Of a DNA stretch of 58,998 nucleotides, positions 516 through 57,315 are shown piece after piece. The number at the start of each line of letters is the position of its first letter. The first letter of the stretch is position 1. The DNA comes from Escherichia phage vB_Eco_SLUR25, in the sequence record LT907986.1; one strand, given 5' to 3'. The position numbers and the translations under genes are program-made. The notes beneath the pieces were generated by a model, which saw only the letters and a program-made list of their open reading frames with translations, did not search any database and was not told the origin of the DNA.

Positions 516-1037
516 TTACAGGCTATAGTTTACGTGACATTTCGAAGTTTCTTCGATGGTGCATTCTACAAGTTGAACACCATGTTCGTCAAGCAGCTGT
601 GGTCCAATTACTTCAACCATGTACGCAGCTAAGTTTTCAGCGGTCGGGTTGAATGGAAGTGACACCAGCGAACCTAAATAATCCATTTGATCCCGATGCG
701 ACATATTGTCCATAGTTGTCGTATCTACAAATTTATTTAAGCTCTCAATGAGCGGATCATGCTCCCAGTGCAGGAACTTATGGTCCCAGTTATCTTCCAG
801 CCACTGACACAGCGTAGTTTTAACCACACTAAAATCGATCACGCGTCCCACGTCGTCCAGCCCACCTTTTTCGCGAAGTGTGCCACAGCGAATAACTTTA
901 ACGTCCGTACGACCTTTCGGCGCAACCTTAAAGTGAAACTTATAGTTGTGACCATGAAGGTGGCGACACTTGCTTTCATGCCCTACAACACGATGTCCAG
1001 CGCAAATTTCATGTGAACGAATTACTGTATAACTCAT
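516..1037 (-). CDS. queD: 6-carboxy-5,6,7,8-tetrahydropterin synthase (QueD)
   Basis: 173 aa; CxxxHGH signature (CRHLHGHNY) of QueD/PTPS family; adjacent to folE/queC/queE. Confidence 0.85.
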   Translation of the reverse strand: MSYTVIRSHEICAGHRVVGHESKCRHLHGHNYKFHFKVAPKGRTDVKVIRCGTLREKGGLDDVGRVIDFSVVKTTLCQWLEDNWDHKFLHWEHDPLIESLNKFVDTTTMDNMSHRDQMDYLGSLVSLPFNPTAENLAAYMVEVIGPQLLDEHGVQLVECTIEETSKCHVNYSL

Positions 1038-1591
1038 TTTAATACCTCTTTAGACTGTTCAATTTCTAACGCACGCTGCGCCGACGCAATAATGTCTTTC
1101 AAATCTTCTACCAGATGTTTATGACCCCGTTCGCCAGGCTGCAACGCTTTTTTAATCAAATGCTGCAAAGCTGGGTTAGTTGTTTTCCAAGCTTCCAAGA
1201 CATCATACACGTCCACGATGCATTTTACAACATTGCCGTTTTCATCTTTACCATAAATAACTTTCTGATATTTATTCATGGGAATTTTAGATGGTTCATA
1301 TTTCGTAAAAATTGCGGTTTTATCAATTCTCCAGTCGGGCAAATTTGCTTCAATAGATTGTTTGACGTAATCATCCGCAACAATATATCTCCAGGCTATA
1401 ATATCTTGAACTTTATAAGGGCTATTCTCATCCATAGCCGAACGCCCTTCTATAGCCCAATCCCATCCATGTAATAGATTCTTAACGTGTGTGCCGTTGC
1501 GCAAACGAACTTCAAACTTCTCATTACGAAGAAAAATAGGCATTCCTTTACCGTCGTGTTGGTGCCAAATTTTATTCAAATTATCTTTCAT
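1034..1591 (-). CDS. hypothetical protein embedded in the 7-deazaguanine cluster
   Basis: ORF track 1034..1636; ATG at 1591 (MKDNLNKIW...) sits 2 nt after the stop of the upstream gene, so the shorter start is preferred; no recognisable motif. Confidence 0.5.
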   Translation of the reverse strand: MKDNLNKIWHQHDGKGMPIFLRNEKFEVRLRNGTHVKNLLHGWDWAIEGRSAMDENSPYKVQDIIAWRYIVADDYVKQSIEANLPDWRIDKTAIFTKYEPSKIPMNKYQKVIYGKDENGNVVKCIVDVYDVLEAWKTTNPALQHLIKKALQPGERGHKHLVEDLKDIIASAQRALEIEQSKEVLK

Positions 1592-1593
1592 TT

Positions 1594-2073
1594 TTACGCT
1601 CTTGCTGTACGTGAATGAACTTCGTAAACAACCCAAAGGATAGCGGATGCTGTGAACTTACTTAAGCTCATTGCTACCATTGATCCCGGATTAACAATAC
1701 CTATAATACTTAAGAACACAATGGAGTCAATCGGTACAGCTACCAAAGAGCTGATAAATACGCGTTGATGAAAAGGCTTCTTGGTGACCGTGTATACTAC
1801 ATAATCAGCAAACTCACTAAGCGCAAAAGACGCAACGGATGCAACTACAACCGCAGGATTACCGAACACCCAGCTAAGGATGCAACCAACGATCATTGCA
1901 GGGATAACGCCTTTGCCAGCGTTACGCTGTGCGTAATCACGCAGAACAAAGATAATGCCTACAAAGAAAGCCATCATTGGGACTACGCCAAGTGGCGTAT
2001 TAAGCATCGGAAGGTAGGAAAAGCCCAGGTTTACGAATGTAATTGCAGCCAGATAAGCAACGATAAATTTCAT
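1594..2073 (-). CDS. multi-pass membrane protein, putative queuosine-precursor transporter (YhhQ/DUF165-like, short form)
   Basis: 159 aa, 4-5 hydrophobic helices; segments FFVGIIFVLRDY and VAVPIDSIVFLSIIG resemble recalled E. coli YhhQ; lies between queD and queC. Confidence 0.4.
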   Translation of the reverse strand: MKFIVAYLAAITFVNLGFSYLPMLNTPLGVVPMMAFFVGIIFVLRDYAQRNAGKGVIPAMIVGCILSWVFGNPAVVVASVASFALSEFADYVVYTVTKKPFHQRVFISSLVAVPIDSIVFLSIIGIVNPGSMVAMSLSKFTASAILWVVYEVHSRTARA

Positions 2074-2193
2074 ACTTTTGTTCTCCAGTTTTAACAGCGC
2101 TGTTCGCTGGTTGTTGGGTTTAAAAGCTTTAGTAGTATAGTTGGGTTACCGCACCCTAAACAATGCGCTAGCGGTGCGGTTTTCGCGGTAAGA

Positions 2194-2901
2194 TCAAGCT
2201 TTGCTAATAAATTCGCTGTACCCTTTAGCACGAAGTTTACACGCCGGGCATTCCCCGCAACCATACCCCCAGTCATGCAGAGTGCGGCGGACGCCATTAT
2301 AGCACGTATGGGACTGCTCAATTACTGTGGTTAAGAAACCAACCTTATCCGCCAGCTCAAACGTTTCTGCTTTATTCAAACGCATAAGCGGAGTAACAAA
2401 ATGGATATCTGTTTCATATCCAACGTTTAACGTAGCTTCAAGCAGATCTACAAACTGCTGGCGGCAATCCGGATAACCGCTATAGTCTGTTTCACAAACG
2501 CCTGTAACCACATATCGGGCTCCGACCTTCTGCGCGTAGGCGTGCGCGGTAGTCAGGAAAAGGGCATTACGGTTTGGCACAAAGCTTGCCGGAAGGTTGT
2601 TGTGCTGTTCGTGATGTTCGTTAACATCACCTTCGTTCCCGATTAAAGCACTATTGCCAATCTGTTTCAATGCAGGTAATTCAAAGACAACAAACGGGAC
2701 ATTGTGCTCTTTACAAATTTGATTAGCACAAGCCAGCTCAATGTTATGACGTTGACCGTATGCAAAACCAATAGCGTAGACTTTGTCATAGTTATTAAGT
2801 GCAAGACCTAGACAAGTCACGCTGTCCTGGCCGCCAGACAGGACGACAACGGCGGAGTTATGATTTTTTACAGGGAATACCAGTTTATCTAATTTATTCA
2901 T
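2194..2901 (-). CDS. queC: 7-cyano-7-deazaguanine synthase (QueC), standalone (no amidotransferase fusion)
   Basis: 235 aa; PP-loop SGGQDS near N-terminus; C-terminal Cys cluster C..CGxCxxC. Confidence 0.9.
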   Translation of the reverse strand: MNKLDKLVFPVKNHNSAVVVLSGGQDSVTCLGLALNNYDKVYAIGFAYGQRHNIELACANQICKEHNVPFVVFELPALKQIGNSALIGNEGDVNEHHEQHNNLPASFVPNRNALFLTTAHAYAQKVGARYVVTGVCETDYSGYPDCRQQFVDLLEATLNVGYETDIHFVTPLMRLNKAETFELADKVGFLTTVIEQSHTCYNGVRRTLHDWGYGCGECPACKLRAKGYSEFISKA

Positions 2902-2902
2902 T

Positions 2903-3091
2903 TTAGAAACCTTTAAGGCTAATATTAAGGTTAATGACTACTTGTTCAACTACAGCTTCAGAGGTTACCTGACGCTGGTGTATCTCAAGCTCCGAATGTA
3001 TTTTCTTGGATGCAGCACGACAAATAGCGTCATTCAACTCGTCTTGTAAACGTTGAATTTTCTGCATAAGGATTACAGTTTCTTCATTCAT
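2903..3091 (-). CDS. small hypothetical protein (tandem paralog 1)
   Basis: 62 aa ORF; sequence pattern similar to adjacent 3084..3296 product. Confidence 0.4.
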   Translation of the reverse strand: MNEETVILMQKIQRLQDELNDAICRAASKKIHSELEIHQRQVTSEAVVEQVVINLNISLKGF

Positions 3092-3296
3092 TTACTTCAC
3101 CTTTAATATCACAAGGGTTAATTGTTACGTTAGACATTACAATTGGATGATTGCGCGCTCCAATTGTGCTAACGTGATTAATATCTAATTCTACATGCAC
3201 GCCCTGCATAGTAGCGTGAGCAATTGCAGAATTAAGTTTTTCTACCAGCTCAGTGATCATTTCCTGATGCTGTTTCGCTTCTTCCAAAGTGATCAT
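3084..3296 (-). CDS. small hypothetical protein (tandem paralog 2); start may be the internal Met at 3260
   Basis: 70 aa ORF; ELVEKLNSAIAHATMQGVHVELDINHVS resembles DELNDAICRAASKKIHSELEIHQRQVTS of neighbour. Confidence 0.4.
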   Translation of the reverse strand: MITLEEAKQHQEMITELVEKLNSAIAHATMQGVHVELDINHVSTIGARNHPIVMSNVTINPCDIKGEVNE

Positions 3297-3552
3297 TTCT
3301 TTTCACCTTCACTAATGTTTGTTTATAATCCATACCTTCAAGGTCAACTTCTGCCATTTCACAAAAGTTATCATCTTCCCAGTATGATATCCATTTAGTT
3401 TCACTGTCCATCAACGTTGGCTCATACTCGAATCCGTAAACTGTACCGTCCTGATCCGTAGCCAGCCACCGTACCCATTCAGGGACATCAAGCTTATTAC
3501 CAAAGTATTCAACTTCTTTAGTATGCACAACCTGACTTAACACACGCATCAT
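3250..3552 (-). CDS. hypothetical protein embedded in the 7-deazaguanine cluster
   Basis: 100 aa ORF between queC and queE, acidic, no recognised motif. Confidence 0.45.
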   Translation of the reverse strand: MMRVLSQVVHTKEVEYFGNKLDVPEWVRWLATDQDGTVYGFEYEPTLMDSETKWISYWEDDNFCEMAEVDLEGMDYKQTLVKVKRNDHFGRSETASGNDH

Positions 3553-4256
3553 TCAACCCCGATATATTTGTGAACCTGAAGCTGCAACGTGTACCCGTGT
3601 TTCATACAGCTTTGGACAACGGCTTGGATGTTACTGTGGTTAAGGTCTTCATCCTGCTCGTCCATTGGCTGTAAATATATCTTACCCTTGAAACCCTTCG
3701 GAGGTCTAGCGATAAATGGCGTAGCTTGATGATCTAATGCCTGAAGCGGCAAACCATCTTCCACGTTTACACAGCACGCTTTAAGTACATATTTAAATGC
3801 GTTTGCGCGGTACAGCACAGTAGGATGAATTTTTGAAGTCTTGGGACTACATACAATTACAGGTAACTGGGAAAAGTTCTTAGGTAAAGGCATAGACCCA
3901 TTAGTTTCAATTTGCACCAAATAGCCGCGCGATAACAGTTGTTCAATAAACGGGTTAATTTGCTGACGGAACGGTTCACCCCCAGTGATAACCACAAGTG
4001 AGGTGCTATTGCCTGATTCCAGCTTACGGCTTTCGATTAAACGCATAATATCGACAATATGATAAAGACTACGACCAACAGTATAATCCGTATCACAGCC
4101 AGGACATTGCAGGTTGCACCCAGCAAGACGCACAAATACAGCAGGTTGGCCGCAGAATGGACCTTCACCCTGAATGGTAGAGAATACCGAATGCACGTCT
4201 AAATACATATCGTTTTCTTTAGAACGGGACTCGGGAGCTTGTTGATTAATATTCAT
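3549..4256 (-). CDS. queE: 7-carboxy-7-deazaguanine synthase (QueE), radical SAM
   Basis: 235 aa; radical-SAM Cys triad CNLQCPGC (CxxxCxxC) near N-terminus; overlaps upstream gene by 4 nt. Confidence 0.85.
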   Translation of the reverse strand: MNINQQAPESRSKENDMYLDVHSVFSTIQGEGPFCGQPAVFVRLAGCNLQCPGCDTDYTVGRSLYHIVDIMRLIESRKLESGNSTSLVVITGGEPFRQQINPFIEQLLSRGYLVQIETNGSMPLPKNFSQLPVIVCSPKTSKIHPTVLYRANAFKYVLKACCVNVEDGLPLQALDHQATPFIARPPKGFKGKIYLQPMDEQDEDLNHSNIQAVVQSCMKHGYTLQLQVHKYIGVE

Positions 4257-5751: not shown

Positions 5752-5772
5752 TGCGATCCCCTATAAATAAGT

Positions 5773-5795
5773 AATGCCCCAATAGTAGGGGCATT
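5773..5795 (-). terminator. terminator-like hairpin between helicase and downstream gene
   Basis: Stem AATGCCCC/GGGGCATT, 7-nt loop, followed on minus strand by a T-rich stretch. Confidence 0.4.
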
Positions 5796-5810
5796 AGATG
5801 TTGAAGTCAA

Positions 5811-7787
5811 TTAGAAAGGAACGTAATCCGGATCATCTACTTGTACAGGGTTAACCACATTGTTCACCGTTATACCTTGCGTATTCTGCGAAACAATATC
5901 GTCCCAGCTTACATCATCGTTATAGCTCGGACCTTCTGTCGTTCCATCCTGACCGTATACTTTAACCTGAATAGCTTCGTCGTCCTGTGGAGCTTCAAAC
6001 TTACCGAAACAAGTACCGTCATAATCATAGTTCAATATCTCAGGCCATTTCTTATTGGTATGAACTTTGATGTATTTTGGTGTTTTAAGCATTGCAGCAA
6101 CATCAAGAGCTTCTTCAATAGTTTGTGGTAAAGGTAAATGTGTCCTTTTCTTCCACCATGCGACAGCTTTACGACCTGCCCAGTCGCCATGAAGCAGAGC
6201 TACCCATTCGCTGAATATTTTACTACCGCAATAATAAGTCACCTTCATTGTTGGAGGTTTAGAGCTGTCATTGCGTTTAGTATGCTTTGCATAAGTCACA
6301 TGCGTAACTTTAAAGTCTTCAACTACTGGAATATCCTGCTTGATCAGGGCTTCCGTACTTGCTGCTTTCTTGAGTTTGGTCTGGAACTTAAACTCATGAC
6401 CGCAAAAGCCTTCTTTAACGTAATCCGTCCCGCGTAGCCTAAATCCTTTCAGATATAATTGTTGAACTTGTTCCTGTGTGACGCTGTCCATTGGGATTGG
6501 TGCGAAGCCACCGCAATAGCGAGCAGATGCATGATTATACGACCCACATACATCGCATTCTTTAACCGGAGCAGTACCAGCACCTTTTTCGCCAGGGCGC
6601 TTGGGTTTAACAGGGTCGTTAATAGGGCCCAAACGGCGCGTATTACCGCTGAAATCCAGTACAAGGCAGTTCTGCTTGGGGCTTGCCGCAATAGCTTGTA
6701 AGCGCCCCTCCTGCGTGGAAAGATCAAAGCCCTCCGCGTACACCGGACGCGTACCGCGACCCAGCATCTGGACCCATAGCACCGCCGACGCAGTGGGGCG
6801 GAGCATGATAATTAAGTCCAGCATTGGATGATCAAAACCTGTGGTTAAGACGTTATTGTTAGTTAATGCTCGAAATTCACCGCGCTTAAACTTCTCAATA
6901 ATCTCGTCACGTTCTTTTGCATCAAGCTTAGAGTGAATACATCCACAGCTAATACCCATATCGTTCAGCATATCACACGCGTCTTTAGCGTGTTCAATAC
7001 CAGAACAAAATATAAGCCAGCTTTGACGGTCTTCACCACATTCAATTGCTTCCTCAAGTGCGCGGAGTGTTGCGTCATCGCGGTTTACCGCACTTTGCAG
7101 CTCACTCTGGATAAACTCACCGCCGCGTTTACCTACCCCGTTGAGGTCCAGCTCCATCTTAGTACGCTTTGGCACAACCGGAAGAAGATAACCTTGCTCC
7201 AGGAACCAGTTGAAGGCTTCCGGAGTAGTTGCATCAAACGTTACCTTATCAAATAACGCATCATCGTCTTCGTTTTCCTTAACAATTGAACCATACCCCA
7301 GTCGATAAGGTGTAGCAGTAAGACCGATGATTTTTAAGTAAGGGTTAACTTCACGCAACGCTGCAAAGAATTTCTTATACATTGTTGCATCACGCGGACT
7401 AATAAGATGCGCTTCGTCCACAAAAATAAGATCAACTTTGCCGAACTTTTTCGGATGCTTAGCAACGGACGCAATCCCTGCAAAGGTAATAAGATTGTAG
7501 ACTTCTTTACGCTTCAAACCCGCGCTGTAAATACCTGCTGGCGCTTCGGGCCAGACTTTCATTAATTTATCATAGTTTTGTGCAATTAACTCTTTGACGT
7601 GAGTTAACATCATTACGCGCTGGTTTGGATACCATTTGTAAAGCAGATCGAGGAACCCCGCGATAACGAGCGATTTTCCTGTCCCTGTTGGTAACAGGAT
7701 CAAAGGGTTCCCCGCGTTACCCTTTTCAGCATCAAAATAGCGGAATACGCTATAAACTGCTTCCTGTTGATAATCGCGGAGCCTCAT
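5811..7787 (-). CDS. superfamily 2 DNA helicase (DEAH-box)
   Basis: Walker A PTGTGKS, motif II VDEAH, later motifs TATP and QMLGRGTR; ATG at 7787 (track start 7793 is TTG). Confidence 0.8.
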   Translation of the reverse strand: MRLRDYQQEAVYSVFRYFDAEKGNAGNPLILLPTGTGKSLVIAGFLDLLYKWYPNQRVMMLTHVKELIAQNYDKLMKVWPEAPAGIYSAGLKRKEVYNLITFAGIASVAKHPKKFGKVDLIFVDEAHLISPRDATMYKKFFAALREVNPYLKIIGLTATPYRLGYGSIVKENEDDDALFDKVTFDATTPEAFNWFLEQGYLLPVVPKRTKMELDLNGVGKRGGEFIQSELQSAVNRDDATLRALEEAIECGEDRQSWLIFCSGIEHAKDACDMLNDMGISCGCIHSKLDAKERDEIIEKFKRGEFRALTNNNVLTTGFDHPMLDLIIMLRPTASAVLWVQMLGRGTRPVYAEGFDLSTQEGRLQAIAASPKQNCLVLDFSGNTRRLGPINDPVKPKRPGEKGAGTAPVKECDVCGSYNHASARYCGGFAPIPMDSVTQEQVQQLYLKGFRLRGTDYVKEGFCGHEFKFQTKLKKAASTEALIKQDIPVVEDFKVTHVTYAKHTKRNDSSKPPTMKVTYYCGSKIFSEWVALLHGDWAGRKAVAWWKKRTHLPLPQTIEEALDVAAMLKTPKYIKVHTNKKWPEILNYDYDGTCFGKFEAPQDDEAIQVKVYGQDGTTEGPSYNDDVSWDDIVSQNTQGITVNNVVNPVQVDDPDYVPF

Positions 7788-7789
7788 AA

Positions 7790-8698
7790 TCAATCTTTCC
7801 CGTAATAATTAGCTACTTGATAGTTTTGACAACCAACTTTCTGCCCTTGCGTATCCACTGCGGCGGAATGGAAATTGCAATACCATGTTCCATCTTCTTT
7901 TGGTTCAAGGAATTGGCATGTGCGGCAGTTTACTTCCGGCATAGTTTTACGCCAGCATAGTGAGGAGTGATCGCACCATTTACATTCGAAGAAAGTGGAA
8001 TCTTTAAATGCGCGGTCCGGAATATCTGTAGCAATAGCAATCTGCACACCACGATCAATATACATGTCCGCGGTAACAGGATCAAACGGAATAATTTCTG
8101 CGTAAACTTCATCGTCATTCTTGTTTACAGCAAGATATAACGCTGCGCCAAGACCTAGTTTTCGCATGTACACGTTCATCTGTACATAGTGCTCAGGTTT
8201 GGCTTCTTTAACACCTTTAGCTTTCAGCTTTTTAAAAGACTTATCGTTATGCGTCTTCATTTCGGTGAGCACAGGCATCCCAGGCTGCACGTCCGGACAA
8301 CCTATAACCACACCATCGCAGGAACCGCCAAAGTGTCCGCCAGCTTCGCTGATACGGAACTGGTGTCCATTTTCGTCCTGCTGATAGACCTGCATACCTG
8401 CCGCAAGAAGCATAGCAATGAAACGCGCTTCTTCCAGATGTCCGCGGTTAAACAGTCGAAGCTGGCGTCCGTCAAACTCTTTGCGTGTAGCCCAGCGATA
8501 TCCATAGAAAAGCTTGCGTGCGCATTGCTGCCCAATAAGGGAAGCGCCTAAGTGACTGCGGTTACCGCTTTCAGGGCGATAAGCGTCTTCAATTGTGGGA
8601 ATGACTACGCCAAGATACTTACGGTAAGTCCCACCCTGATCTTTTTGCACACCGTCATTGATCGCTTGAAGTGTTTTTTCTGCAATATAAATAGCCAT
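7790..8698 (-). CDS. PD-(D/E)xK exonuclease, Cas4-like with Fe-S cysteine cluster
   Basis: 302 aa; D...EMK nuclease-like motif; N-terminal Cys plus C-terminal CxxCx5C (CKWCDHSSLC), the Cas4/RecB-family pattern. Confidence 0.6.
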   Translation of the reverse strand: MAIYIAEKTLQAINDGVQKDQGGTYRKYLGVVIPTIEDAYRPESGNRSHLGASLIGQQCARKLFYGYRWATRKEFDGRQLRLFNRGHLEEARFIAMLLAAGMQVYQQDENGHQFRISEAGGHFGGSCDGVVIGCPDVQPGMPVLTEMKTHNDKSFKKLKAKGVKEAKPEHYVQMNVYMRKLGLGAALYLAVNKNDDEVYAEIIPFDPVTADMYIDRGVQIAIATDIPDRAFKDSTFFECKWCDHSSLCWRKTMPEVNCRTCQFLEPKEDGTWYCNFHSAAVDTQGQKVGCQNYQVANYYGKD

Positions 8699-8763
8699 TG
8701 GAATACCTTAGAAAAATAAGCCGTCTTTCGACGGCTTATGGACACTACAGAGGGAGGGTTATC

Positions 8764-9645
8764 TTACTGCTGCCACGGCGGGACTGCTGCTTGTGCTGGA
8801 TGCGGTTCAGCTTGCTGCTGCGGCTGAGCTTGCTGCTGAGGCGCTGCTGCCTGACCCGGCTGTGCTACCTGCTGCGCCCACGGCTGCTGGGCTGCTTCCG
8901 GTGCTACTGGCTGTTGTACCGGAGCTTGCTGCACTGGCTGCTGTGGTGCTGCGTTTTGAGCAGGATTATCCCACGGCTGCGGTGCGGCATTCTGCCACGG
9001 TTGTGCTGCTGCGCCCTGCTGTGGTGCTGGTTGCTGCACAGGCTGCTGAACTGGTTGCTGTTGCTGCACCGGAGCTTGCTGCTGAGGCGCTTGCTGTTGC
9101 TGTGCAAACGGGTTAGCTGCTGGTTGCTGAGGTGCTGCGCCCGGGAAAGCTGGCTGCTGTGCTGGCGCACCTGCACCGAACGGGTTAGCTACTGCCGCTT
9201 GAGCACCCATTGCTGGAGCACCTGCTTCTTTTTCTGCATACTTAACCGGATCGTTGATGTTAGCATAACCGTTAGGCTCGTTGCTGTCTTCATAACCTTC
9301 CTGAGAACGAACTTTCAGACGCAGGTTCAGCGGAATGTTATGCAGTTGAGCAGGAGTATCCCAGCGAATTACGCCAACCGCATGGGAAAGCGCGCCCAGT
9401 TGTTCGTATGCGATACGCACAGTATCTTCGTTGTCGTTGATAACATTGTAACGAGCAAAGATTTTACGACCTTTAGCAAAACCATCAATGATGCTAAACG
9501 TTACCTGGATCGCCATACCGCCATTTTTGGTCGGTTTAAATTCAGATGCTTCAATTACTGCTTTATACCAACCTTTCGGCAATGCGCCGTAAGAAGGTGC
9601 TTGATAGCTGCTCGCGTCAAAGTGGAAATTAGTTGGCATAGTCAT
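8764..9645 (-). CDS. DUF669-like (SSB-like) recombination-associated protein with long Gln/Pro/Ala-rich C-terminal tail
   Basis: Globular N-terminal ~130 aa followed by ~160 aa of QQP/QPW low complexity; immediately downstream of Sak4-like ATPase with TAATG overlap. Confidence 0.5.
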   Translation of the reverse strand: MTMPTNFHFDASSYQAPSYGALPKGWYKAVIEASEFKPTKNGGMAIQVTFSIIDGFAKGRKIFARYNVINDNEDTVRIAYEQLGALSHAVGVIRWDTPAQLHNIPLNLRLKVRSQEGYEDSNEPNGYANINDPVKYAEKEAGAPAMGAQAAVANPFGAGAPAQQPAFPGAAPQQPAANPFAQQQQAPQQQAPVQQQQPVQQPVQQPAPQQGAAAQPWQNAAPQPWDNPAQNAAPQQPVQQAPVQQPVAPEAAQQPWAQQVAQPGQAAAPQQQAQPQQQAEPHPAQAAVPPWQQ

Positions 9646-10373
9646 TAGTTAATACCTTTCATTTTGTTGATAACAGAACCTAAGTGTGGGACTTCAACCG
9701 CATCTAAACGTCCCGAACGATCCTTAGCGATTGTATTAAAGTCCGGTTGAGTTTGCAAGTAACGATACGAGTTACCTTGCTGATCCTTATTTACATTCAG
9801 ACGAAATACTTCGTCGAAGAAGTAAGGGAGCATTTGCCCCAATTTGGATCCAGGCATAGATGGAGCATACGCGGTAACACCGGAGACTTCATCTTTGTCT
9901 TTGCCCATTTTAGCAGACATATAAACATGTTTGCCAGGAATATCGCGAAATTTACGGATCAGATCTTGCATCTTTTCAAGCAAAGTACCATAAGCTTGAC
10001 GAGGATCTTTCGTTCCCTTTTTCGCGTTGTTTAAACATTGTTCAGCAATTTCGCTCAAGCTGTCAAGCGCAATAGAATCGAAATACTGCTGGTTAGCTGG
10101 AGTTACGCACCACTGATAAGCCGCTTCAACGTCTTCCAGACATTTCACTTCAATTACCGGAATATCGTAAACGATGGGCAAACCCATGTTACCATAAACA
10201 CGGTTAAGGTTTTCCGCTGCAATAGACAACAGACCGGATTCTGCGCTGATTAAAATTGGTTTAGGTAGTGTGGCTACAAGGCTGGTTTTACCCATACCTG
10301 CTTCACCGTAAACCAGAATTTTAACACCTGTGTCCTGCACAACTTGTGAAGACATTTTAATTTCAATGGCCAT
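9645..10373 (-). CDS. Sak4-like RecA-fold ATPase (phage recombination protein)
   Basis: 242 aa; Walker A GEAGMGKTS near N-terminus; size and context typical of phage Sak4/AAA_24. Confidence 0.6.
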   Translation of the reverse strand: MAIEIKMSSQVVQDTGVKILVYGEAGMGKTSLVATLPKPILISAESGLLSIAAENLNRVYGNMGLPIVYDIPVIEVKCLEDVEAAYQWCVTPANQQYFDSIALDSLSEIAEQCLNNAKKGTKDPRQAYGTLLEKMQDLIRKFRDIPGKHVYMSAKMGKDKDEVSGVTAYAPSMPGSKLGQMLPYFFDEVFRLNVNKDQQGNSYRYLQTQPDFNTIAKDRSGRLDAVEVPHLGSVINKMKGIN

Positions 10374-10438
10374 TTAACGCCTCTCTTTTAAGTTCGCGCT
10401 CATTGTAACGTAATATACTTTGAACCCTCAATTACTTT

Positions 10439-11365
10439 TTAATCTAAAGCCTGATCACTTTCATCGCGGAAATGCATAAAGTTTGCAAAACGCGGTTTAT
10501 CTTTCACGCCATGAGGGAAGTGTTTATATGAAATAGTCCGACCTTTAATTTTGTCAGGGTTATTCCAATAATAAATCTTATCCTCTTGCGTTAGTTTACC
10601 AGGACTAACGTTGATTGTATTACCCGTCTTAACGTCTTTACAAACCAACGTCCCGATCATACCGTTAGGAACTTTATTTTCCTGATGCGAAGATCGTGTA
10701 GTCCTGCCCAGCTCGTTAACAGTAGCTTCATTAAGGTTAGTTTCACCCTCAATAATATCAAGGACAATAGCATCTTCCTGAATAAAGCGTTTAATACGAA
10801 GATATCCACCTTCACGAACTGTGCCGCGCCCATGTTTATAAGGCTTGTCAGGATCGCGGATAATAATACCTTCATAACCCATATCAAGCCAGATGTTTTC
10901 CCAGTAGAGCAACTCTTCTAAAGACTTAACCACATACATTGGCACAACTTGCAGGTCGAGCAATTCACCTTTCGCGTGCTGTGTGGTTATAAAATCTTTC
11001 ATCATGTTGTAGCGGGCTTCATAGCCCAGCTCTGCAACACTCTCAGCGCACAGATCAAAGATGTGCCATTTCAGGAACGGTTCACCTTCAATTGTGTTTA
11101 CCGCACTGGTTGTTTTACGACACAGGTCTGGATCTGTTTCCACCCCTGCCGCAAGCTCACCGTCATAGCCCATGTATTGAGAACCGCTGAAAATTGCGCT
11201 GGTATGGCGGTTTTTAAACAGCTTTAAGCTTCGCCCTACTATCTGCCCGTCCGGATTTAAACCGCGTACACCGTCGATTTTAGGCAGTATACAGCACGGA
11301 AACTTAATCTTTTCTTCAACCGCGTCAGTCGCTAAATGTGGTTTAAATGCCATTGTTAACCTCAT
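10439..11365 (-). CDS. ATP-dependent DNA ligase
   Basis: Adenylation motif KIDGVRG (KxDG); length ~300 aa typical of small phage ligases; ATGA overlap with upstream gene. Confidence 0.8.
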   Translation of the reverse strand: MRLTMAFKPHLATDAVEEKIKFPCCILPKIDGVRGLNPDGQIVGRSLKLFKNRHTSAIFSGSQYMGYDGELAAGVETDPDLCRKTTSAVNTIEGEPFLKWHIFDLCAESVAELGYEARYNMMKDFITTQHAKGELLDLQVVPMYVVKSLEELLYWENIWLDMGYEGIIIRDPDKPYKHGRGTVREGGYLRIKRFIQEDAIVLDIIEGETNLNEATVNELGRTTRSSHQENKVPNGMIGTLVCKDVKTGNTINVSPGKLTQEDKIYYWNNPDKIKGRTISYKHFPHGVKDKPRFANFMHFRDESDQALD

Positions 11366-12026: not shown

Positions 12027-12257
12027 TTATGCAGGAATGGATTCTTGCGGTGCTTCCGGAATAACAATCTCAATCTCTTCCTCATTCTGGAAGGTTAGTC
12101 GAAACCCGTCTCCTGGACGCCCGAAAGCAAAGGTAAGGGCTATCGTATTATCCTGCTCGTAATGACAGATACTTTCTACTTTCATTTCGTTACCGTAAAA
12201 GTCACGGTAAATCATTCCAGGTAGCGCATCGGTCGCTTTGATCTTTCTTACAGCCAT
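12027..12257 (-). CDS. hypothetical protein
   Basis: 76 aa ORF in operon context. Confidence 0.4.
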   Translation of the reverse strand: MAVRKIKATDALPGMIYRDFYGNEMKVESICHYEQDNTIALTFAFGRPGDGFRLTFQNEEEIEIVIPEAPQESIPA

Positions 12258-12268
12258 TATTCCCCCGT

Positions 12269-13060
12269 TTACAGTTTGTCTTTGAACTCTTCGATATATT
12301 GCTCGATCGGATACTGCTTACGCTTGAAACGATCAAACAAGATTTTAGCAGATTCTACGTCTTCGTCGCTCTCTTTACTTGCGCCCGGTGCCATAAAATC
12401 ACGCCATGTAAAACCGTTCAGATTATGCATCTTAGCGATGTGCTTGTTGTAACGGCTTTCCCAGTCCACACGCGGACCTTCCATCTTGCGTAAACCGCGC
12501 CCAAGCACCTGTACATACAAATCTTTCTGACGTTGTACAGCTTCACCATTATAAGGTCCGGTTTTAAACTCAACAACACTACCGTTAAGATCTGCACCAT
12601 CCGCAAAGTTGTGTAGCATAGTTTCAATAACGTCATTCAATGTTGGAACCGTCACTTTGCCCTGGGCAATGCCTGCCAAATAACCGACGTTTTCTTCACC
12701 GTACAACTCGATCAGTTCTTTCTTGGTTGCTTCTGCTTCTTTGTTTGCGGACAAAGCCAACATCTGTTGTTCGAACATGTGTTCCTGTTCCAGGAAGTGA
12801 GCATAGCGCTCTTCGTCTACTTTGCACACAATCCATTTATATTCAACATCCTTGCTGAAGTCCGGATACTGATCTACTTCTACTACTTCCGTAGTAAAGA
12901 ACTTGCCGTTATATTGAATAACAACTGTATCGCCCGGCTGCAATTCGTCACTTTCCAGAGCACGGTAGGTATAAAGACGGCCACCCGCTTCAAACTTAAC
13001 TTTGACAGTTACAACGCCTTTTAACAGAGCATGATAAGCTTTCTGAAATTCTTTACGCAT
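12269..13060 (-). CDS. hypothetical protein
   Basis: 263 aa ORF, no recognised motif. Confidence 0.5.
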   Translation of the reverse strand: MRKEFQKAYHALLKGVVTVKVKFEAGGRLYTYRALESDELQPGDTVVIQYNGKFFTTEVVEVDQYPDFSKDVEYKWIVCKVDEERYAHFLEQEHMFEQQMLALSANKEAEATKKELIELYGEENVGYLAGIAQGKVTVPTLNDVIETMLHNFADGADLNGSVVEFKTGPYNGEAVQRQKDLYVQVLGRGLRKMEGPRVDWESRYNKHIAKMHNLNGFTWRDFMAPGASKESDEDVESAKILFDRFKRKQYPIEQYIEEFKDKL

Positions 13061-13754: not shown

Positions 13755-14510
13755 CTATTTCAAATAGCGGGAAGTCATAATTGGATGCAAAGACACTTCT
13801 TCCTCAGATGTAACCACATTGGGCTTCCCTGAGCAAGGCACTTCTAATTCAATTTCAGCTGCCCCACAGACACGGCATTGATGTAATGCAATTTCACCAT
13901 TTCTATCCTTGATGCACTCAGGGGCGTCCGGATCGCTATTAATATATAATTCATGACCGTTTATAAAAGGTCGCATATCCTGTTTACGATAAGCTACACC
14001 CGTTGACCCGAAACCATTAGCACCGCGCTCAGTAGTCTTGAGCTCGTCTACTTCTACCAGTTGCACGCAAGGCACCTTAATAAGCATAGCTTGCGCAATA
14101 CGATCACCATGACTAACGGTAAAACTACCATTATGATCAATAGTAAGCTTAACTTTAACTTCGCCAGTGTAGTCGCTATCGATGACACCTACGCAGTTAG
14201 CCAAACGAACGTCATTTTTGAATCCATGTCCACTCCGGGAATAGACCATAAGCGCATATCCTTTAGGGATATCAAATGCTAACCCTGTACGGAATACGTG
14301 CTCGTAAGAGAAAATGATTTGTTCACAACCGTCTTCACTTTTGAGATCCGCGTGCAGGTCAAAGCAAGCTGCCCCGGCAGTGGCAAACGCTGGTAGAATT
14401 GCCGTGTCAGTTAAACGTTTCACACCGACCGGAATTGTGCTTAATGATGCAGCAAGTTTTTCAACATCAATTGCAAAAGAATTTTTTGTGATATTTAATA
14501 CATCAGTCAT
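13755..14510 (-). CDS. dut: dUTP diphosphatase (dUTPase) with C-terminal Cys-containing extension
   Basis: Motifs YSRSGHG, GVIDSDYTGE, HGDRIAQ typical of trimeric dUTPases; extra ~90 aa C-terminal region with CxxC. Confidence 0.8.
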   Translation of the reverse strand: MTDVLNITKNSFAIDVEKLAASLSTIPVGVKRLTDTAILPAFATAGAACFDLHADLKSEDGCEQIIFSYEHVFRTGLAFDIPKGYALMVYSRSGHGFKNDVRLANCVGVIDSDYTGEVKVKLTIDHNGSFTVSHGDRIAQAMLIKVPCVQLVEVDELKTTERGANGFGSTGVAYRKQDMRPFINGHELYINSDPDAPECIKDRNGEIALHQCRVCGAAEIELEVPCSGKPNVVTSEEEVSLHPIMTSRYLK

Positions 14511-25483: not shown

Positions 25484-25749
25484 TTACTGCTCAAGAAGCT
25501 CGTGAATTAAGCGATAAGCTGGATATTAGCGAAGATATTGAATTTATCAGTGACAGCATTCGCGTAGCTGCTACAAAGGGATACAATAAAGTATCACTGG
25601 TAACCAAATACGGCGCTGTTGGCAATCCTGACACTCAAGACCCGACCACTATGAAGATTGCTAAATGGTTAGCTGATTCTGGTTTTACGGTGTTATATTA
25701 TCCTTCAATGGACCAACGTGATAACGAGCGTACTGAGGTGGCATGGTGA
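25480..25749 (+). CDS. hypothetical protein
   Basis: 89 aa ORF overlapping upstream stop. Confidence 0.5.
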   Translation: MITAQEARELSDKLDISEDIEFISDSIRVAATKGYNKVSLVTKYGAVGNPDTQDPTTMKIAKWLADSGFTVLYYPSMDQRDNERTEVAW

Positions 25750-25816
25750 TTGAAGAAAATATCAAATATTGGAAAGGCTTTATTGACGAAATGTTGAAAC
25801 CGTTGGAGAAGAAATA

Positions 25817-26209
25817 ATGCTATTAGTCGTCACCGGAGGTCGAAATTTTAAGCATGTGGAGTATATTTATGCTCAATTGGATAAGCTGCATATGCAAAGA
25901 AGGATAACCACACTTCGCCACGGTGACGCTGACGGTGTTGACCGCATTTGCGCACAGTGGGCAGAGCGCAACGGTATTAAGACAGAAGCGTTCCCTGCCC
26001 CGTGGGACAATCTTTCCTTACCAAATACCAAGATACGGTATAACGCCAAAGGTGCTTATAACGCACAAGCAGGCGCTTATCGCAATCAATTAATGCTGGA
26101 TACCGATCCTAAACCGGATCACGCTATTGTGTTTCCTGGCGGAGCTGGTACTATGGATATGTACAGACGGATTAAAGCATCCGGTATTCCTTACACATTA
26201 GCGGAGTAA
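25817..26209 (+). CDS. SLOG/DUF2493-like (Rossmann-like ligand-binding) protein
   Basis: LLVVTGGRNF ... HGDADGVDRICAQWAERNG ... FPGGAGTMDM resembles recalled DUF2493/YspA pattern. Confidence 0.4.
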   Translation: MLLVVTGGRNFKHVEYIYAQLDKLHMQRRITTLRHGDADGVDRICAQWAERNGIKTEAFPAPWDNLSLPNTKIRYNAKGAYNAQAGAYRNQLMLDTDPKPDHAIVFPGGAGTMDMYRRIKASGIPYTLAE

Positions 26210-26212
26210 ATA

Positions 26213-26683
26213 ATGGCTGACGTTAAAACTATTGTTGATGCAATGGACGAATCCAAAGACTGCCAACTGAAGAAGTCATTTGAAGTAAAACAGGTTACAG
26301 AGACTCAGTTGGTTTGTAATTTTGCGCGTTATTGTGGACTGGGGCGCGGGAAAGACTGGAACGGGCTTATTGTTATGCCCACATCACAGATTCTCGTTTA
26401 CGTCCGCAACGTTGTAGAAGATGTTCTGCGTCTTCAGGTTGAAATTGGTGACGTAGAAATTAACATGACCGCGAGTTCTACCATTGTGGTTAAATGGCAG
26501 TCGGGCGAGACACTGCGTTTGGAAGCGTGTCATTGTGCTAAGAGCTTGCACCACCTGCGCGGCTGTCATTACCAGTTCGTTGGGTTTGTACATCCGCAAG
26601 GGTTAAGCGAGCGTACGGCGCTGGTAGCGCGTTTGCTGCTGCGTCCTTATAATAACGAGCCGGAAGTTATATACGAGGCATAA
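26213..26683 (+). CDS. hypothetical protein
   Basis: 156 aa ORF. Confidence 0.5.
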   Translation: MADVKTIVDAMDESKDCQLKKSFEVKQVTETQLVCNFARYCGLGRGKDWNGLIVMPTSQILVYVRNVVEDVLRLQVEIGDVEINMTASSTIVVKWQSGETLRLEACHCAKSLHHLRGCHYQFVGFVHPQGLSERTALVARLLLRPYNNEPEVIYEA

Positions 26684-26684
26684 A

Positions 26685-27110
26685 ATGTCAGTAAATTTTG
26701 TCAAACAGCCAACTTTAAATACATGCGTTTCTGCGTGTTTGGCAATGATCCTTAATAAACCTGTTGAGAAGGTTATTGAGGAATTTCATAGTCGTTATTA
26801 TAACAACTGGGAAATCACTATCAGCGAATATTTGACTAAAAACGGCGTCCAGCATCATTGTTCAGAAGGTGGTGGACGTGAAACTTTGCATATGGGAGGT
26901 TTGTTCCTGTGCACGGTGCCAAGTCTTAATATTCCTGGCGCATTGCACCAGATTGTGATTGATATGACGGATCACAAGTTTATTGTGCATGATCCAATTA
27001 AAGGATGGGAAGGTAAAAAGTTCTATGTTGGTCCGGATCAAGATCCTGAAGAGCCTGGAGCTTTTATCATTCATACTTGGGTCAAAGACGTTGAAATCCT
27101 GCCTTATTAA
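26685..27110 (+). CDS. papain-like cysteine peptidase (C39-like)
   Basis: N-terminal Q-x5-C in KQPTLNTCVSACLAMIL and downstream His/Asp (FIVHDP), as in C39 peptidases. Confidence 0.45.
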   Translation: MSVNFVKQPTLNTCVSACLAMILNKPVEKVIEEFHSRYYNNWEITISEYLTKNGVQHHCSEGGGRETLHMGGLFLCTVPSLNIPGALHQIVIDMTDHKFIVHDPIKGWEGKKFYVGPDQDPEEPGAFIIHTWVKDVEILPY

Positions 27111-54376: not shown

Positions 54377-56362
54377 TTAGGCGTATCCCATGTCTTCGAG
54401 ATACTTCTCTGCTTTAGCTATATAAGCATCATAATCTATGTCGTCCGGTATTTTATCCGGTAGCGTCATGATCGGGACACCTCCCGCGCTACCAGCTACA
54501 CGGTTGCCCGAGTTAGCATAGATTATTTCAGGTGTTTCTTCATTAGTGCTTAAATACCAGCGTACAACCTTACCCAAAAATTCGCCATTCCATACCGCGC
54601 CGCCTTTTACCGCACGTAGGATAATGAATTTTCTAATATCGTTGCAATTGCGTATAGTACGAGAAACAGGCGTACCGTGGGCCAAACATTCACATACAGC
54701 TTCCATAATGATCTCACCAGTACAGTTCTTTTGAAGACCTGTCTTTGCGAACCACCCTTTACGTTTAATTTCAACATTTCCTTCCTCGTCAGGTTCTTTT
54801 ACTGCAACATAGTTATTGACGTTAGCGCTGTACAGCTTGTCATAGTAGTTGGACTCCATTTCAAAGCCTGTCACGGATTCCCACCACTTGATCATATTAT
54901 CAACGAAGTCCTGCATGTGGTCTGGATACTTAACCACAATGCCGTCCGTGTTCGCTGAAATTACTTTAACACCATTCAACTCAAATGCTTCAATAAGCAT
55001 CAACAGTGAAAGCTGCCCTGTTAATGTAACTTGTATCAATAATTGCGGCGCGTAAAGGACAGACCACATAGACCCCAGCTTACCAAACGATCCGTTAATA
55101 ACGATCTTCAGCGTGTTGGCTGTGTTCTTGTCTCCGCTGTGCTTAGCTGCAATACGGCGGTCTACAATACTTTTATAAACACGAAGGAACGCTGGTCCCA
55201 ACTGTTCTGGATATAAGCCCTGATTAAGAATGATTGAAGGATAATAAGACGTTACGTCAATGTCCCGCTTTTTGATACCAGGCTCTTTACCGTGGCCAGC
55301 ACACTCTTCGGAGCTATGCAAACCACCAATACCCATACGGTAGACACCGTCCGCAATCTTGATCTCAAGACCTGTTAATGCAGGAGGTAAGCTGACACCA
55401 CCGTTATCGCTAACAATAAAGCGACAGTCCCGAACAATATCCAAAACACTATTCATCAAAGGAGTTTGAAAACGAATAAAGTCTGGTATGTTGTATGCAT
55501 ACTTTGTTCCAGGATAAACTTGCGGACGCTGTGGGCGCACGCCCGTCAACGCTTGGATTTCGTGCTTAATTACGTCTTCTGCAATCTGTGCATCTGAGCG
55601 TGAACGCAGGTCCACACCGTATTCTTGCGACATAATTTCACGCAAGTGAATAGGCTCTTGTAATGCAATAAAACATTCTTCCGTCTGTACAAGGTCGTTA
55701 ATACAGTACCAGCGCACAATAAGCATCTGGTCTTGCGTCAACATTGTATTAGGCTTGAACGGTAAATCCTGCATACGACGAGTATGTACACGTCCGCCGT
55801 ATTGTTTCAAACCGCCGGACCCAGGCAGCACTTCCATGATATCGATGTGGTTAACGTTCTGCATACGCTTGAGACGGTAACTCTTCAATACATCCGAAGG
55901 ACGCCAGTCTTCAACGATTATTTTATCAGTTGCGTCTTTAAGCTGAGCATTAGAGCAGCCGTTAAGCGCAAGCGTAGCAATGGGCATATCGTACCCGTTA
56001 CCGTTAAAGCTTACGATAAGGAAGTTTGTCATTACCCAGTTAAGTAGCAAGCAATTCAAACTACAACCGTGATACATTTCGAAGTAGACAACTTTCTTAG
56101 TCCTTACTCCGCGGAATGCGATCAAGAAGTAGTTTGGATAACATTCAATATCATATACAAGCGGTTCGCGGTTAATCCATGCTTGAATAAGTTCATCCTG
56201 CGTATACAGGTTGTATTGGAAGTTCCGCGCTTCCTCAAGGTTAGGCAAATAATCCTGGCGCTCCCAAGTGCGCTCCGGCGGTAAACGTTTAACCTTTTCT
56301 TTCTTTGCTTTTGGCTCAGGCGGTAAGTCCTGCCAAAAGAAACCAATAGCATCTGTCCGCAT
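54377..56362 (-). CDS. family B DNA polymerase with 3'-5' exonuclease domain
   Basis: Exo motifs VYDIECYP and FNGNGYDMP; pol motifs DVTSYYPSI, KIVINGSFGK, ANTDG; ATG 56362 in TAATG overlap. Confidence 0.75.
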   Translation of the reverse strand: MRTDAIGFFWQDLPPEPKAKKEKVKRLPPERTWERQDYLPNLEEARNFQYNLYTQDELIQAWINREPLVYDIECYPNYFLIAFRGVRTKKVVYFEMYHGCSLNCLLLNWVMTNFLIVSFNGNGYDMPIATLALNGCSNAQLKDATDKIIVEDWRPSDVLKSYRLKRMQNVNHIDIMEVLPGSGGLKQYGGRVHTRRMQDLPFKPNTMLTQDQMLIVRWYCINDLVQTEECFIALQEPIHLREIMSQEYGVDLRSRSDAQIAEDVIKHEIQALTGVRPQRPQVYPGTKYAYNIPDFIRFQTPLMNSVLDIVRDCRFIVSDNGGVSLPPALTGLEIKIADGVYRMGIGGLHSSEECAGHGKEPGIKKRDIDVTSYYPSIILNQGLYPEQLGPAFLRVYKSIVDRRIAAKHSGDKNTANTLKIVINGSFGKLGSMWSVLYAPQLLIQVTLTGQLSLLMLIEAFELNGVKVISANTDGIVVKYPDHMQDFVDNMIKWWESVTGFEMESNYYDKLYSANVNNYVAVKEPDEEGNVEIKRKGWFAKTGLQKNCTGEIIMEAVCECLAHGTPVSRTIRNCNDIRKFIILRAVKGGAVWNGEFLGKVVRWYLSTNEETPEIIYANSGNRVAGSAGGVPIMTLPDKIPDDIDYDAYIAKAEKYLEDMGYA

Positions 56363-57315
56363 TAGACACGTTCTCCAATTAACACACCGCGAAGATTTTC
56401 CCCAAAGAATGCGCAAGGTTGCGGATATAAACTAAAGTCCGCAGTCTTAACCACATTTTCGAGTAATAACAGGATGTCGATATTGTAAACTCCTGTTATT
56501 GATCTGTCCTGCAATACGAAGCTTGCACCTTCTGCATCATCGTAATGAGTACGTGCTAGACCGTTTTCAATATATACGCGAGGACGATCTTCCGCAAAAG
56601 GTTTGATTTTATGCAAGCCCTCAAAAAGACCTGGATCAACAGGATGTGCATTGCATTGAACATTTAAAATACGACGTATATCAGGCCACTCCGCATCAAT
56701 AAGCTGTGTTCGCAACCAGCGACCTTCCGGATAATGAAACGTCACATTGTTCTTGCTAACCTGAATATGTGTCGGGTTAGCTTTAATGCGCAGTATTTCT
56801 TTAATAGCAACAGACGGTATTATGCAGTCAATAGGGAATTGATTACCAAACCAATATTCCGCAATGGTGACGTTATTTGTAGCAAACAGGCTACCGTTAT
56901 TAATCAGAATACCACAGGCCCACGGGCGGGACGCATCCGAGCCTACAAACGGAGCAACAGACTTCACACCGTGTACGAAGCGAGCACCGTCTATTTCGTA
57001 TAAATCGCCTTCAGGGAATACGTGAGGCGTTTCCTTGTCAATGCAGCGTATAGCAACACGAAACGGTCCGGACTTGATATTAAGTTTACCGTTAGCCATC
57101 ATTGTTAACTGTACGGTTTCGTCACAGTTTGAAATAGCTTTAATCATAGGACCAGCTTCGGGCTTGCAATCAATATCCAGCTCAATAGGGCTACCCAGTG
57201 CAATAACACCGTTAAAGCCCTGTACCTGTCCATCACGGATAAGAAAACTGGTAAGCCCTTCTACCAGTTCCTTTTTAGCGACGGAGCCTTGAACAAATTT
57301 AAGAGCGTCTAACAT
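56362..57315 (-). CDS. DNA polymerase sliding clamp (DnaN/beta-clamp-like)
   Basis: 317 aa; QLIDAEWPDIRRILN resembles recalled DnaN motif KLVDGRFPDYRRVLP; immediately upstream of polymerase gene. Confidence 0.5.
   Translation of the reverse strand: MLDALKFVQGSVAKKELVEGLTSFLIRDGQVQGFNGVIALGSPIELDIDCKPEAGPMIKAISNCDETVQLTMMANGKLNIKSGPFRVAIRCIDKETPHVFPEGDLYEIDGARFVHGVKSVAPFVGSDASRPWACGILINNGSLFATNNVTIAEYWFGNQFPIDCIIPSVAIKEILRIKANPTHIQVSKNNVTFHYPEGRWLRTQLIDAEWPDIRRILNVQCNAHPVDPGLFEGLHKIKPFAEDRPRVYIENGLARTHYDDAEGASFVLQDRSITGVYNIDILLLLENVVKTADFSLYPQPCAFFGENLRGVLIGERV

Follow-up and report, generated by a model that had tools for sequence, protein, structure and literature searches.

A predicted recombination and replication module with a Sak4-like ATPase and a RadD-like helicase in Escherichia phage vB_Eco_SLUR25

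The window analyzed here is the whole 58,998-nucleotide stretch of DNA from Escherichia phage vB_Eco_SLUR25 (LT907986.1), and the subject of this report is the segment from 5811 to 10373, whose minus strand is filled by four consecutive open reading frames (ORFs). All on this strand, they encode a Sak4-like ATPase (9645-10373, 242 amino acids (aa)), a DUF669 protein resembling single-stranded DNA (ssDNA)-binding proteins (SSBs; 8764-9645, 293 aa), a nuclease of the Cas4-type PD-(D/E)xK fold (7790-8698, 302 aa), and a RadD-like ATPase/helicase of superfamily 2 (SF2; 5811-7787, 658 aa from the ATG at 7787, or 660 aa from a TTG at 7793). Given the family matches described below, none of the four is a chance ORF.

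The segment is 100% identical, over the whole queried stretch, to Escherichia phage vB_Eco_SLUR63 (LR025196.1, 58,998 bp; Seuratvirus, Queuovirinae), and 93-99% identical to 32 further phages of this group, CAjan and Seurat among them. Sazinas et al. described the SLUR63 phage without discussing these four genes (PMC5758909). The RefSeq orthologues in CAjan, gp48-gp51, are named DNA helicase, Cas4-domain exonuclease, hypothetical protein (DUF669), and Sak4-like ssDNA annealing protein. The four-gene module is real, ordinary, and already annotated, and the family calls made in a preliminary description of this DNA are correct. The module is not new because the genome has been deposited, its orthologues are named in RefSeq, and the partnership of Sak4 with SSB has been published. 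The refinements that the present analysis would add from sequence conservation, namely the relationship of the helicase to RadD, an apparently relocated SSB-type tip, a PPW tip on the SSB-like protein, and a conserved putative internal terminator, were not found in the open-access and bioRxiv literature that we searched.

The first gene product of the module matches Pfam AAA_24 (PF13479; 97.4 bits against a cutoff of 27, 1.2e-27) over profile positions 2-195 of 195, as well as phrog_124, "Sak4-like ssDNA annealing protein" (1.7e-59), in agreement with the Sak4-like ATPase proposed initially; it scores below the cutoff of NCBIfam TIGR01618 (phage_P_loop). The Walker A motif GEAGMGKT is located at residues 23-30 (~10284-10307), and the AAA_24 profile extends over residues 16-220 of the 242, a core-only build of the RecA/Rad51 type in which an extra N- or C-terminal DNA-binding domain is absent. 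A Sak4-like homologue is present in 429 phage records, and a search of PDB sequences with the protein returned no meaningful match. About 80% of sak4 genes adjoin an ssb gene (PMC5928155), and the same adjacency is found here, with the DUF669 gene as the cognate partner. The only biochemically characterized Sak4 system is hkaL/hkaK of HK620, in which Sak4 performs ATP-dependent ssDNA annealing that is stimulated by its SSB via the last six residues of the latter, NDYPPF (PMC5928155). Sak4 is also required for the replication of S. aureus phages (PMC5499656). The window gene encodes a Sak4-type RecA-core ATPase, for which an annealing function can be predicted by analogy.

The second protein matches Pfam DUF669 (PF05037; 54.1 bits against a cutoff of 21, 2.4e-14; profile positions 2-138 of 138) through approximately its first 150 residues (9196-9645, minus strand), and phrog_6015, "single strand DNA binding protein" (6e-40), which substantiates its description as DUF669-like. 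This family has been linked to the SSB of N4, and viruses that encode it have no other SSB (PMC4889955, Kazlauskas et al. 2016). Likewise, the annotation of the relative CAjan includes no further SSB, and the DUF669 protein, which adjoins a sak4-type gene, is the only recognizable SSB candidate of the phage. A word-indexed homologue search with the DUF669 N-domain gave only 9 proteins; an exhaustive search of representatives was used instead, in which 5231 match this domain at E<=1e-3. A profile built from 31 N-domain sequences matched nothing among PDB sequences, and a single-sequence search of the PDB gave no meaningful match. Because these profile searches, and the hhalign comparison considered below, came out empty, the OB-fold and the SSB assignment are predictions that rest on Pfam, PHROG, and the literature.

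The remainder of the DUF669 protein (aa 151-293; 8764-9195, minus strand) is a low-complexity tail composed of 33% Q, 25% A, and 21% P. PW occurs in it four times, at aa 216, 224, 255, and 290; the end is HPAQAAVPPWQQ, with PPWQQ as the last residues and no acidic SSB tip. The nearest DUF669 subfamily was sampled as 136 full-length representatives clustered at 50% identity; [P/A]PW occurs within the last 13 residues of 117 of these, and none has an acidic xPF end. C-terminal tails of DUF669 proteins have been described generally as acidic (PMC4889955), whereas this subfamily ends in a non-acidic PPW. Since a Pro-Pro-aromatic motif is common to the ends of the HK620 SSB and of the window protein, PPW may be the Sak4-binding element here. 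The tail varies in length among near-identical phages, CAjan gp50 included (262, 293, 294, or 295 aa in total, with N-domains 97-99% identical). A 316-aa plus-strand ORF (8698-9648), antisense to the DUF669 gene, is an apparent by-product of biased composition.

The four genes had been regarded as consecutively coupled through ATGA and TAATG overlaps, which holds in part. The Sak4 stop and the DUF669 start do overlap by one base, in TAATG. At the junction of the Cas4-like gene and the helicase, the stop is followed after a 2-nt gap by the ATG that is annotated as the start in GenBank (TGAttATG); the alternative TTG (7793) would create a TTGA overlap, and ATGA is found in neither case. The DUF669 and Cas4-like genes, in turn, are 65 nt apart and uncoupled. 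This spacer holds a hairpin resembling an intrinsic terminator (8706-8739, minus strand; AUAAGCCGUC-GAAA-GACGGCUUAU followed by UUUUU) with a 10-bp GC-rich stem and a fold energy of -22.4 kcal/mol (z = -2.8); none of 200 shuffled sequences folds as well. A hairpin with a T-run is found at the equivalent position in Nonagvirus SE1, Klebsiella phage Kpn2-P2, and the myovirus Rosemountvirus SE13, that is, in four genera including Seuratvirus, and the stems are wholly different (GCCGUC/GACGGC, AAGCUCC/GGAGCUU, CAGCGCC/GGCGCUG, and AGGGGC/GCCCCU). Retention of the position despite changed stems is the pattern expected of a functional terminator or attenuator. Because the 65-nt spacer with its hairpin parts the DUF669 gene from the Cas4-like gene, the module consists of two coupled pairs, Sak4-SSB and nuclease-helicase, separated by a terminator-like element. 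Coupling within each pair is seen again in other genera and in HK620.

The nuclease matches phrog_1990, Cas4-domain exonuclease (3.4e-118), and its AlphaFold2 (AF2) model (pLDDT 93.9) was matched by Foldseek to the PDB structures of Cas4 SSO0001 (4ic1), LHK-Exo/lambda Exo (3sz4/1avq), Cas4 Pcal_0546 (4r5q), EXO5, and RecE. The matches to Cas4 structures (4ic1, 3.7e-6; 4r5q, 2.6e-4; 8d3l, 1e-3) have a Foldseek probability of 1.00 each and modest TM-scores of 0.33-0.39; for Cas4, lambda Exo, RecE, and EXO5 together, the scores normalized to the query are only 0.33-0.42. With these enzymes the protein shares the PD-(D/E)xK fold and the D...ExK...QxxxY motifs, represented by the active-site residues D128, E146, and K148 and by Q173 and Y177, all invariant in 93 homologues. 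Also invariant in this set are the cysteines C59...C239-x2-C242-x5-C248, which form the C...CxxCx5C pattern of Cas4 and AddB. Both the Cas4-like fold and the cysteine cluster had been recognized in the preliminary description, and the nuclease probably carries an Fe-S cluster. The Cas4/DUF83 profiles that it named gave no match: scans of Pfam (up to E<=10) and NCBIfam, including the Cas4 models PF01930 and TIGR00372, were empty, all of 120 homologues are devoid of precomputed Pfam domains, and a sequence search of the PDB found nothing meaningful. The Cas4-like call rests on PHROG, fold, and motifs because a Pfam or NCBIfam match is absent. No cas1, cas2, or CRISPR array lies beside the gene, the neighbours of which are replication and recombination genes, and the protein is for this reason called Cas4-like rather than a Cas protein. 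C-terminal of the Cas4-type cluster, a second set of four cysteines (C258, C261, C274, and C290; ~7829-7927) is invariant in the 93 sequences and is modeled by AF2 as a small three-stranded C-terminal mini-domain; this module, absent from the matched Cas4 and lambda Exo structures, may represent either a zinc ribbon or a further Fe-S site.

The last gene product was correctly described as an SF2 helicase: it matches Pfam ResIII (76 bits), Helicase_C (61 bits), and also DEAD, as well as the PHROG DNA helicase family (2e-99). Its kinship with E. coli RadD (YejH; 6jde/7r7j) had been missed. In a search of PDB sequences, RadD (6jde) was found at 9.5e-55 and the next entry at 1.8e-13. BLASTP against E. 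coli RadD gave 35% identity over 430 aa (2e-64), reaching into the first zinc site, past which the similarity ends after residue 418. The AF2 model (pLDDT 89) comprises two RecA-like domains (aa 1-~400), a Cys4 zinc-ribbon, a C-terminal domain, and a disordered tail. The top eight Foldseek matches of this model are all RadD chains, at about 1e-35 (2.5e-35), 19 orders of magnitude ahead of any other protein, the next being FANCM (4e-16); the superposition covers ~640 columns in both proteins, with a TM-score of 0.45-0.54 and a root-mean-square deviation of 17-19 Å. The SF2 motifs are all conserved, and K38, D124, and E125 are invariant in 114 homologues, as are the zinc-ribbon cysteines C411, C414, C425, and C462 (~6402-6557). 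Of these, C411 and C414 align to C384 and C387 of RadD, so that the CxxC...C...C site begins at the aligned position and is the counterpart of the RadD zinc finger ZF1 (C384, C387, C411, and C425). RadD accelerates RecA-mediated strand exchange and binds SSB (PMC8887467, PMC10238739); here, a RecA-like protein and an SSB candidate are encoded beside the helicase. The resemblance has already been noticed by annotators, many homologues being called "RadD" by JGI and "YejH" being noted in one phage record.

The phage protein can also be compared with the branch-migration helicases UvsW of T4 and D10 of T5. Like these, it is an SF2 helicase located among recombination and replication genes, and a 658-aa orthologue from Seuratvirus Bas22 ("Heli22") triggers Retron-Eco11 as UvsW and D10 do (PMC12746101). 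Pairwise identity to UvsW and D10 is only 13-14% (PMC12746101), and RadD is much closer.

The C-terminal tip of the helicase, DDPDYVPF (5814-5837, minus strand), resembles DFDDDIPF, the last eight residues of E. coli SSB (PMC10238739). The tail that carries it is predicted to be disordered (pLDDT below 50 in the AF2 model). The helicase is the only window ORF with an SSB-type end, and E. coli RadD has no such end. Among the 114 helicase homologues, 110 end in xP[F/W], 90 in [DE][DE][IV]PF, 47 in DDDIPF, and 13 in DFDDDIPF, the last group including those of Nonagvirus SE1, Klebsiella phage Kpn2-P2, and Pseudomonas phage JG054. Exactly one tip carrier was found in each phage region examined, and in related phages with a tip-less helicase, a different member of the module bears it. 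In VpKK5 and Rosemountvirus SE13, the carrier is a Cys-rich protein of 71-73 aa (phrog_23504, unknown function) encoded just after, or overlapping, the end of the tail-less helicase gene. These small proteins (12178-12393 in Vibrio phage VpKK5 and 8203-8424 in Salmonella phage SE13) end in ...QIDIPF or ...FDYDVPF and have a CxxC...C...GC pattern similar to the additional C-terminal Cys4 module of the nuclease. The RadD-like helicase of Pseudomonas phage 73 also has no SSB-type tip; in this phage the clamp-like DNA polymerase processivity factor (25688-26851, minus strand) ends in ...NYEDDIPF and is the sole tip-bearing ORF in a scan of the whole genome.

These patterns lead us to a tentative proposal, which we rate as less probable than its negation: the hub function of SSB may have been split, with the DUF669 tip turned into PPW and a host-like tip, identical to that of the host at up to 8 of 8 residues, moved to another protein of the module. 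The carrier would usually be the RadD-like helicase, and otherwise the phrog_23504 Cys-rich protein or the clamp-like factor. Most likely, the tip docks the helicase onto a reader of SSB tails that is either a partner of the host SSB or encoded by the phage; host SSB partners, Sak4, and the phage polymerase or clamp are candidate readers. In RadD, three arginines (R21, R49, and R145) frame the pocket that recognizes the SSB tail (PMC10238739). By pairwise alignment, the corresponding helicase residues are D19, N55, and K152, the equivalence of N55 being uncertain because of an indel near R49; in the 114 homologues the first two columns vary and the third is always K or R, so that only the position of R145 is still basic. 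Binding of the helicase tail to its own RadD-type pocket is unlikely, as the pocket arginines are not conserved and the AF2 model leaves the tail undocked at low confidence. Mimicry of the SSB C-terminus or DDDIPF by phage helicases is not reported in the open-access papers and bioRxiv preprints that we searched.

Actinobacteriophages were inspected in order to see whether the tip tracks that of the host. Their modules are arranged differently, with a PPF-type tip on the SSB-like protein. In Gordonia phage Phendrix, gp166 (locus 9802-10482, 226 aa) directly follows a RecA-like/Sak4-type gene and ends in ...DTPPPPPF, so that here, too, the presumed SSB partner of a Sak4-type protein has a Pro-Pro-aromatic tip.

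The order Sak4, DUF669, Cas4-like nuclease, helicase is kept in Seuratvirus, Nonagvirus, Nipunavirus, Vibrio phage VpKK5, Septimatrevirus, and Rosemountvirus (a myovirus), with identities of the syntenic proteins down to 27-42%, and down to 28% for Sak4. The upstream neighbours encode RusA, dUTPase, RNase H, and an ATP-dependent ligase; a separate primase/helicase, the clamp-like factor, and DNA polymerase are encoded elsewhere in the genome. In Seuratvirus, a QueE/QueC/QueD/FolE/DpdA cluster follows just downstream of the helicase. The 7-deazaguanine genes of the window (DpdA, QueD, QueC-like, QueE, and others) are flanked by the helicase on one side and by the clamp-like and polymerase genes on the other (57542-58462, 516-4256, and 56362-57315). 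Pseudomonas phage 73 has the same four-gene order, with the helicase directly adjoining clamp and polymerase, and a tblastn search of its genome found no DpdA, QueE, QueC, or QueD homologue. Because these genes are contiguous in phage 73 in the absence of deazaguanine genes, the cluster looks like an insertion between helicase and clamp, into an older replication module. As phage 73 keeps the module without them, the module appears independent of DNA modification.

We consider it probable that the segment is the central recombination and replication module of a lytic siphovirus, composed of two coupled pairs parted by a leaky terminator. The partners had previously been called typical of a Sak4-type system, and a recombination module in which Sak4 accompanies SSB, nuclease, and helicase indeed fits the literature (PMC5928155, PMC8093625, PMC5499656). 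We infer all steps of the following mechanism from characterized relatives. The nuclease would resect double-stranded ends in the 5'->3' direction, and the DUF669 SSB would coat the exposed 3' single strand. The Pro-Pro-aromatic motif at the C-terminus of the SSB would recruit Sak4 to the coated DNA, and Sak4 would anneal the coated strand to complementary ssDNA in an ATP-dependent reaction, as do HK620 Sak4 and its SSB. The RadD-like motor may then extend or branch-migrate the joint, comparable to RadD acting with RecA, UvsW in T4, and D10 in T5, and the neighbouring RusA resolvase, RNase H, and ligase would complete the products. In this way, recombination-dependent replication would be primed, concatemers would be made, and breaks would be repaired. 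Owing to the putative terminator or attenuator that follows the SSB gene, nuclease and helicase would be less abundant than Sak4 and SSB.

Several results weigh against this assignment. BLASTP of the window Sak4 against HK620 Sak4 aligned only the P-loop and was not significant (E = 0.01); HK620 Sak4 itself is barely over the AAA_24 cutoff (30 bits). Neither is the similarity of the DUF669 protein to the HK620 SSB significant in BLASTP; hhalign of the two gave a probability of 2.6%, and a Pfam scan of the HK620 SSB found no DUF669 match at E<=0.01. Because significant pairwise similarity is absent, the transfer of function from HK620 rests on family-level homology. Moreover, HK620 Sak4 requires an acidic SSB tip, which in HK620 carries a terminal Phe and is missing from the DUF669 protein; the window SSB instead bears a P/Q/A linker of 143 aa that contains an internal Trp and zero acidic residues. 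HK620 also differs in having no adjacent Cas4-like nuclease or SF2 helicase. What the two systems share is an AAA_24 RecA-core ATPase gene directly before a coupled SSB gene, with an overlap of 4 nt in HK620 and 1 nt here, and a Pro-Pro-aromatic motif at the C-terminus of the SSB (NDYPPF in HK620 and VPPWQQ here).

For the helicase, the NCBIfam RadD equivalog model NF053632 gives 263 bits against a cutoff of 720 and is aligned at positions 1-358 of 573 only, in comparison with 1030 bits for E. coli RadD. The helicase has no second CxxC...CxxC set corresponding to RadD ZF2 (C434, C437, C448, and C451), and no more invariant cysteines; ZF2 is required in vivo, where C437A inactivates RadD (PMC9049331). 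Given the score below the equivalog cutoff, the absence of ZF2, and the end of similarity after the first zinc site, the helicase appears to be a relative of RadD, not an orthologue. An SSB-like tail is present on the phage helicase and not on RadD, and RadD itself has no demonstrated helicase activity. The terminator function of the hairpin between the two pairs is, for its part, a prediction from sequence. Finally, the DUF669 protein must also be the replicative SSB, and "recombination module" is too narrow a label: because this protein is the only SSB candidate, the module would serve replication as well, and recombination and replication roles are inseparable by sequence analysis.

It is conceivable, although we regard it as the less probable account, that the genes mainly supply replisome parts, with DUF669 as the replicative SSB, the motor remodeling or restarting forks, its acidic tail acting as a tether to polymerase or clamp, and the AAA_24 ATPase serving as a loader or mediator. 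In phage 73, the module is located directly beside the clamp-like factor and DNA polymerase, and the DDIPF-type tip is on the clamp-like protein, not on the helicase. The acidic, Phe-terminated tails of T7 gp4 and gp2.5 bind T7 polymerase. That CAjan has no other annotated SSB, as is generally the case for DUF669 viruses (PMC4889955), points in the same direction. However, a separate primase/helicase is encoded elsewhere, the Sak4-family proteins that have been tested are annealases (PMC5928155), and the resection-type nuclease and RusA resolvase point to recombination; the replisome account also overlaps with the recombination and replication module rather than excluding it. A role directed at the host is similarly doubtful. 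Here, the tip would copy the host SSB tail to recruit or titrate chi, PriA, RecQ, ExoI, RecO, or RNase HI, and the nuclease would degrade host DNA or interfere with defence. This would agree with the 13 homologues whose end is identical to that of E. coli SSB (PMC10238739), with the absence of such a tip from the phage's own SSB, with the single tip carrier per phage region examined, and with the sensing of an orthologous helicase by a retron defence (PMC12746101). Yet the Seuratvirus tip has diverged to DDPDYVPF, and the nuclease keeps tight synteny with recombination genes rather than host-shutoff genes. The T7 tails mentioned above make purely phage-internal contacts. The same applies to the acidic Phe-terminated tails of HK620 (PMC5928155).

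The preliminary description had further suggested that the module may affect how modified DNA is repaired. Specialization for repair or replication of 7-deazaguanine-modified DNA is, in our judgment, very improbable. Adjacency is what speaks for it, the deazaguanine cluster being located just downstream of the Seuratvirus helicase. The link is unsupported in light of phage 73, which has the same genes in the same order without DpdA, QueE, QueC, or QueD and with the helicase beside clamp and polymerase; the deazaguanine genes seem to have been inserted into a replication module that predates them.

Among bacterial repair proteins, RadD remains enigmatic, and its phage homologue, whose gene shares a conserved operon with those for a RecA-like protein, an SSB, and a resection nuclease, offers a simpler study system. 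If the proposed recombination and replication module is correctly identified, it would constitute a compact and genetically tractable set of components (RecA-like protein, SSB, nuclease, and RadD-like motor) from which the function of RadD-type motors could be learned. The SSB-like tip of the helicase and the PPW tip of the SSB are concrete, testable interaction motifs. Should the former be a working mimic, the phage helicase would plug into, or block, the host SSB interaction network. Since an orthologous helicase triggers retron defence, the partners of the helicase bear on phage sensing.

Further features flank the module. A promoter-like site on the minus strand (10402-10431; TTGAGG-18-TACAAT), a consensus match only, lies in the 65-nt spacer between the ligase and Sak4 genes and might be the start of the Sak4-SSB transcript; the region contains 12 such consensus sites against 9.1 expected. 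Just past the helicase stop, a second terminator-like hairpin (5772-5796, minus strand) has a stem of 9 base pairs and then CTTATTTATA; Nonagvirus SE1, in which 8 nt separate the helicase from the following gene, does not share this hairpin. The module is a target of selfish elements: an HNH or homing endonuclease gene breaks up the four-gene segment in phages SA80RD and VogelGryff (OL960575.1 and MZ501110.1), and one helicase homologue of 995 aa contains intein/LAGLIDADG homing-endonuclease domains.

Bases 1-127 of the window are identical to bases 58872-58998, and a GTP cyclohydrolase (folE-like) gene is split across the window ends. Because the duplication has exactly that length, it suggests a k-mer-127 assembly overlap of a circular or permuted genome rather than a biological terminal repeat. 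The upstream dUTPase gene (13755-14510) is 756 nt long here versus 657 nt in CAjan, and the extra C-terminal part of its product is Cys-rich (…CRVCGAAEIELEVPC…).

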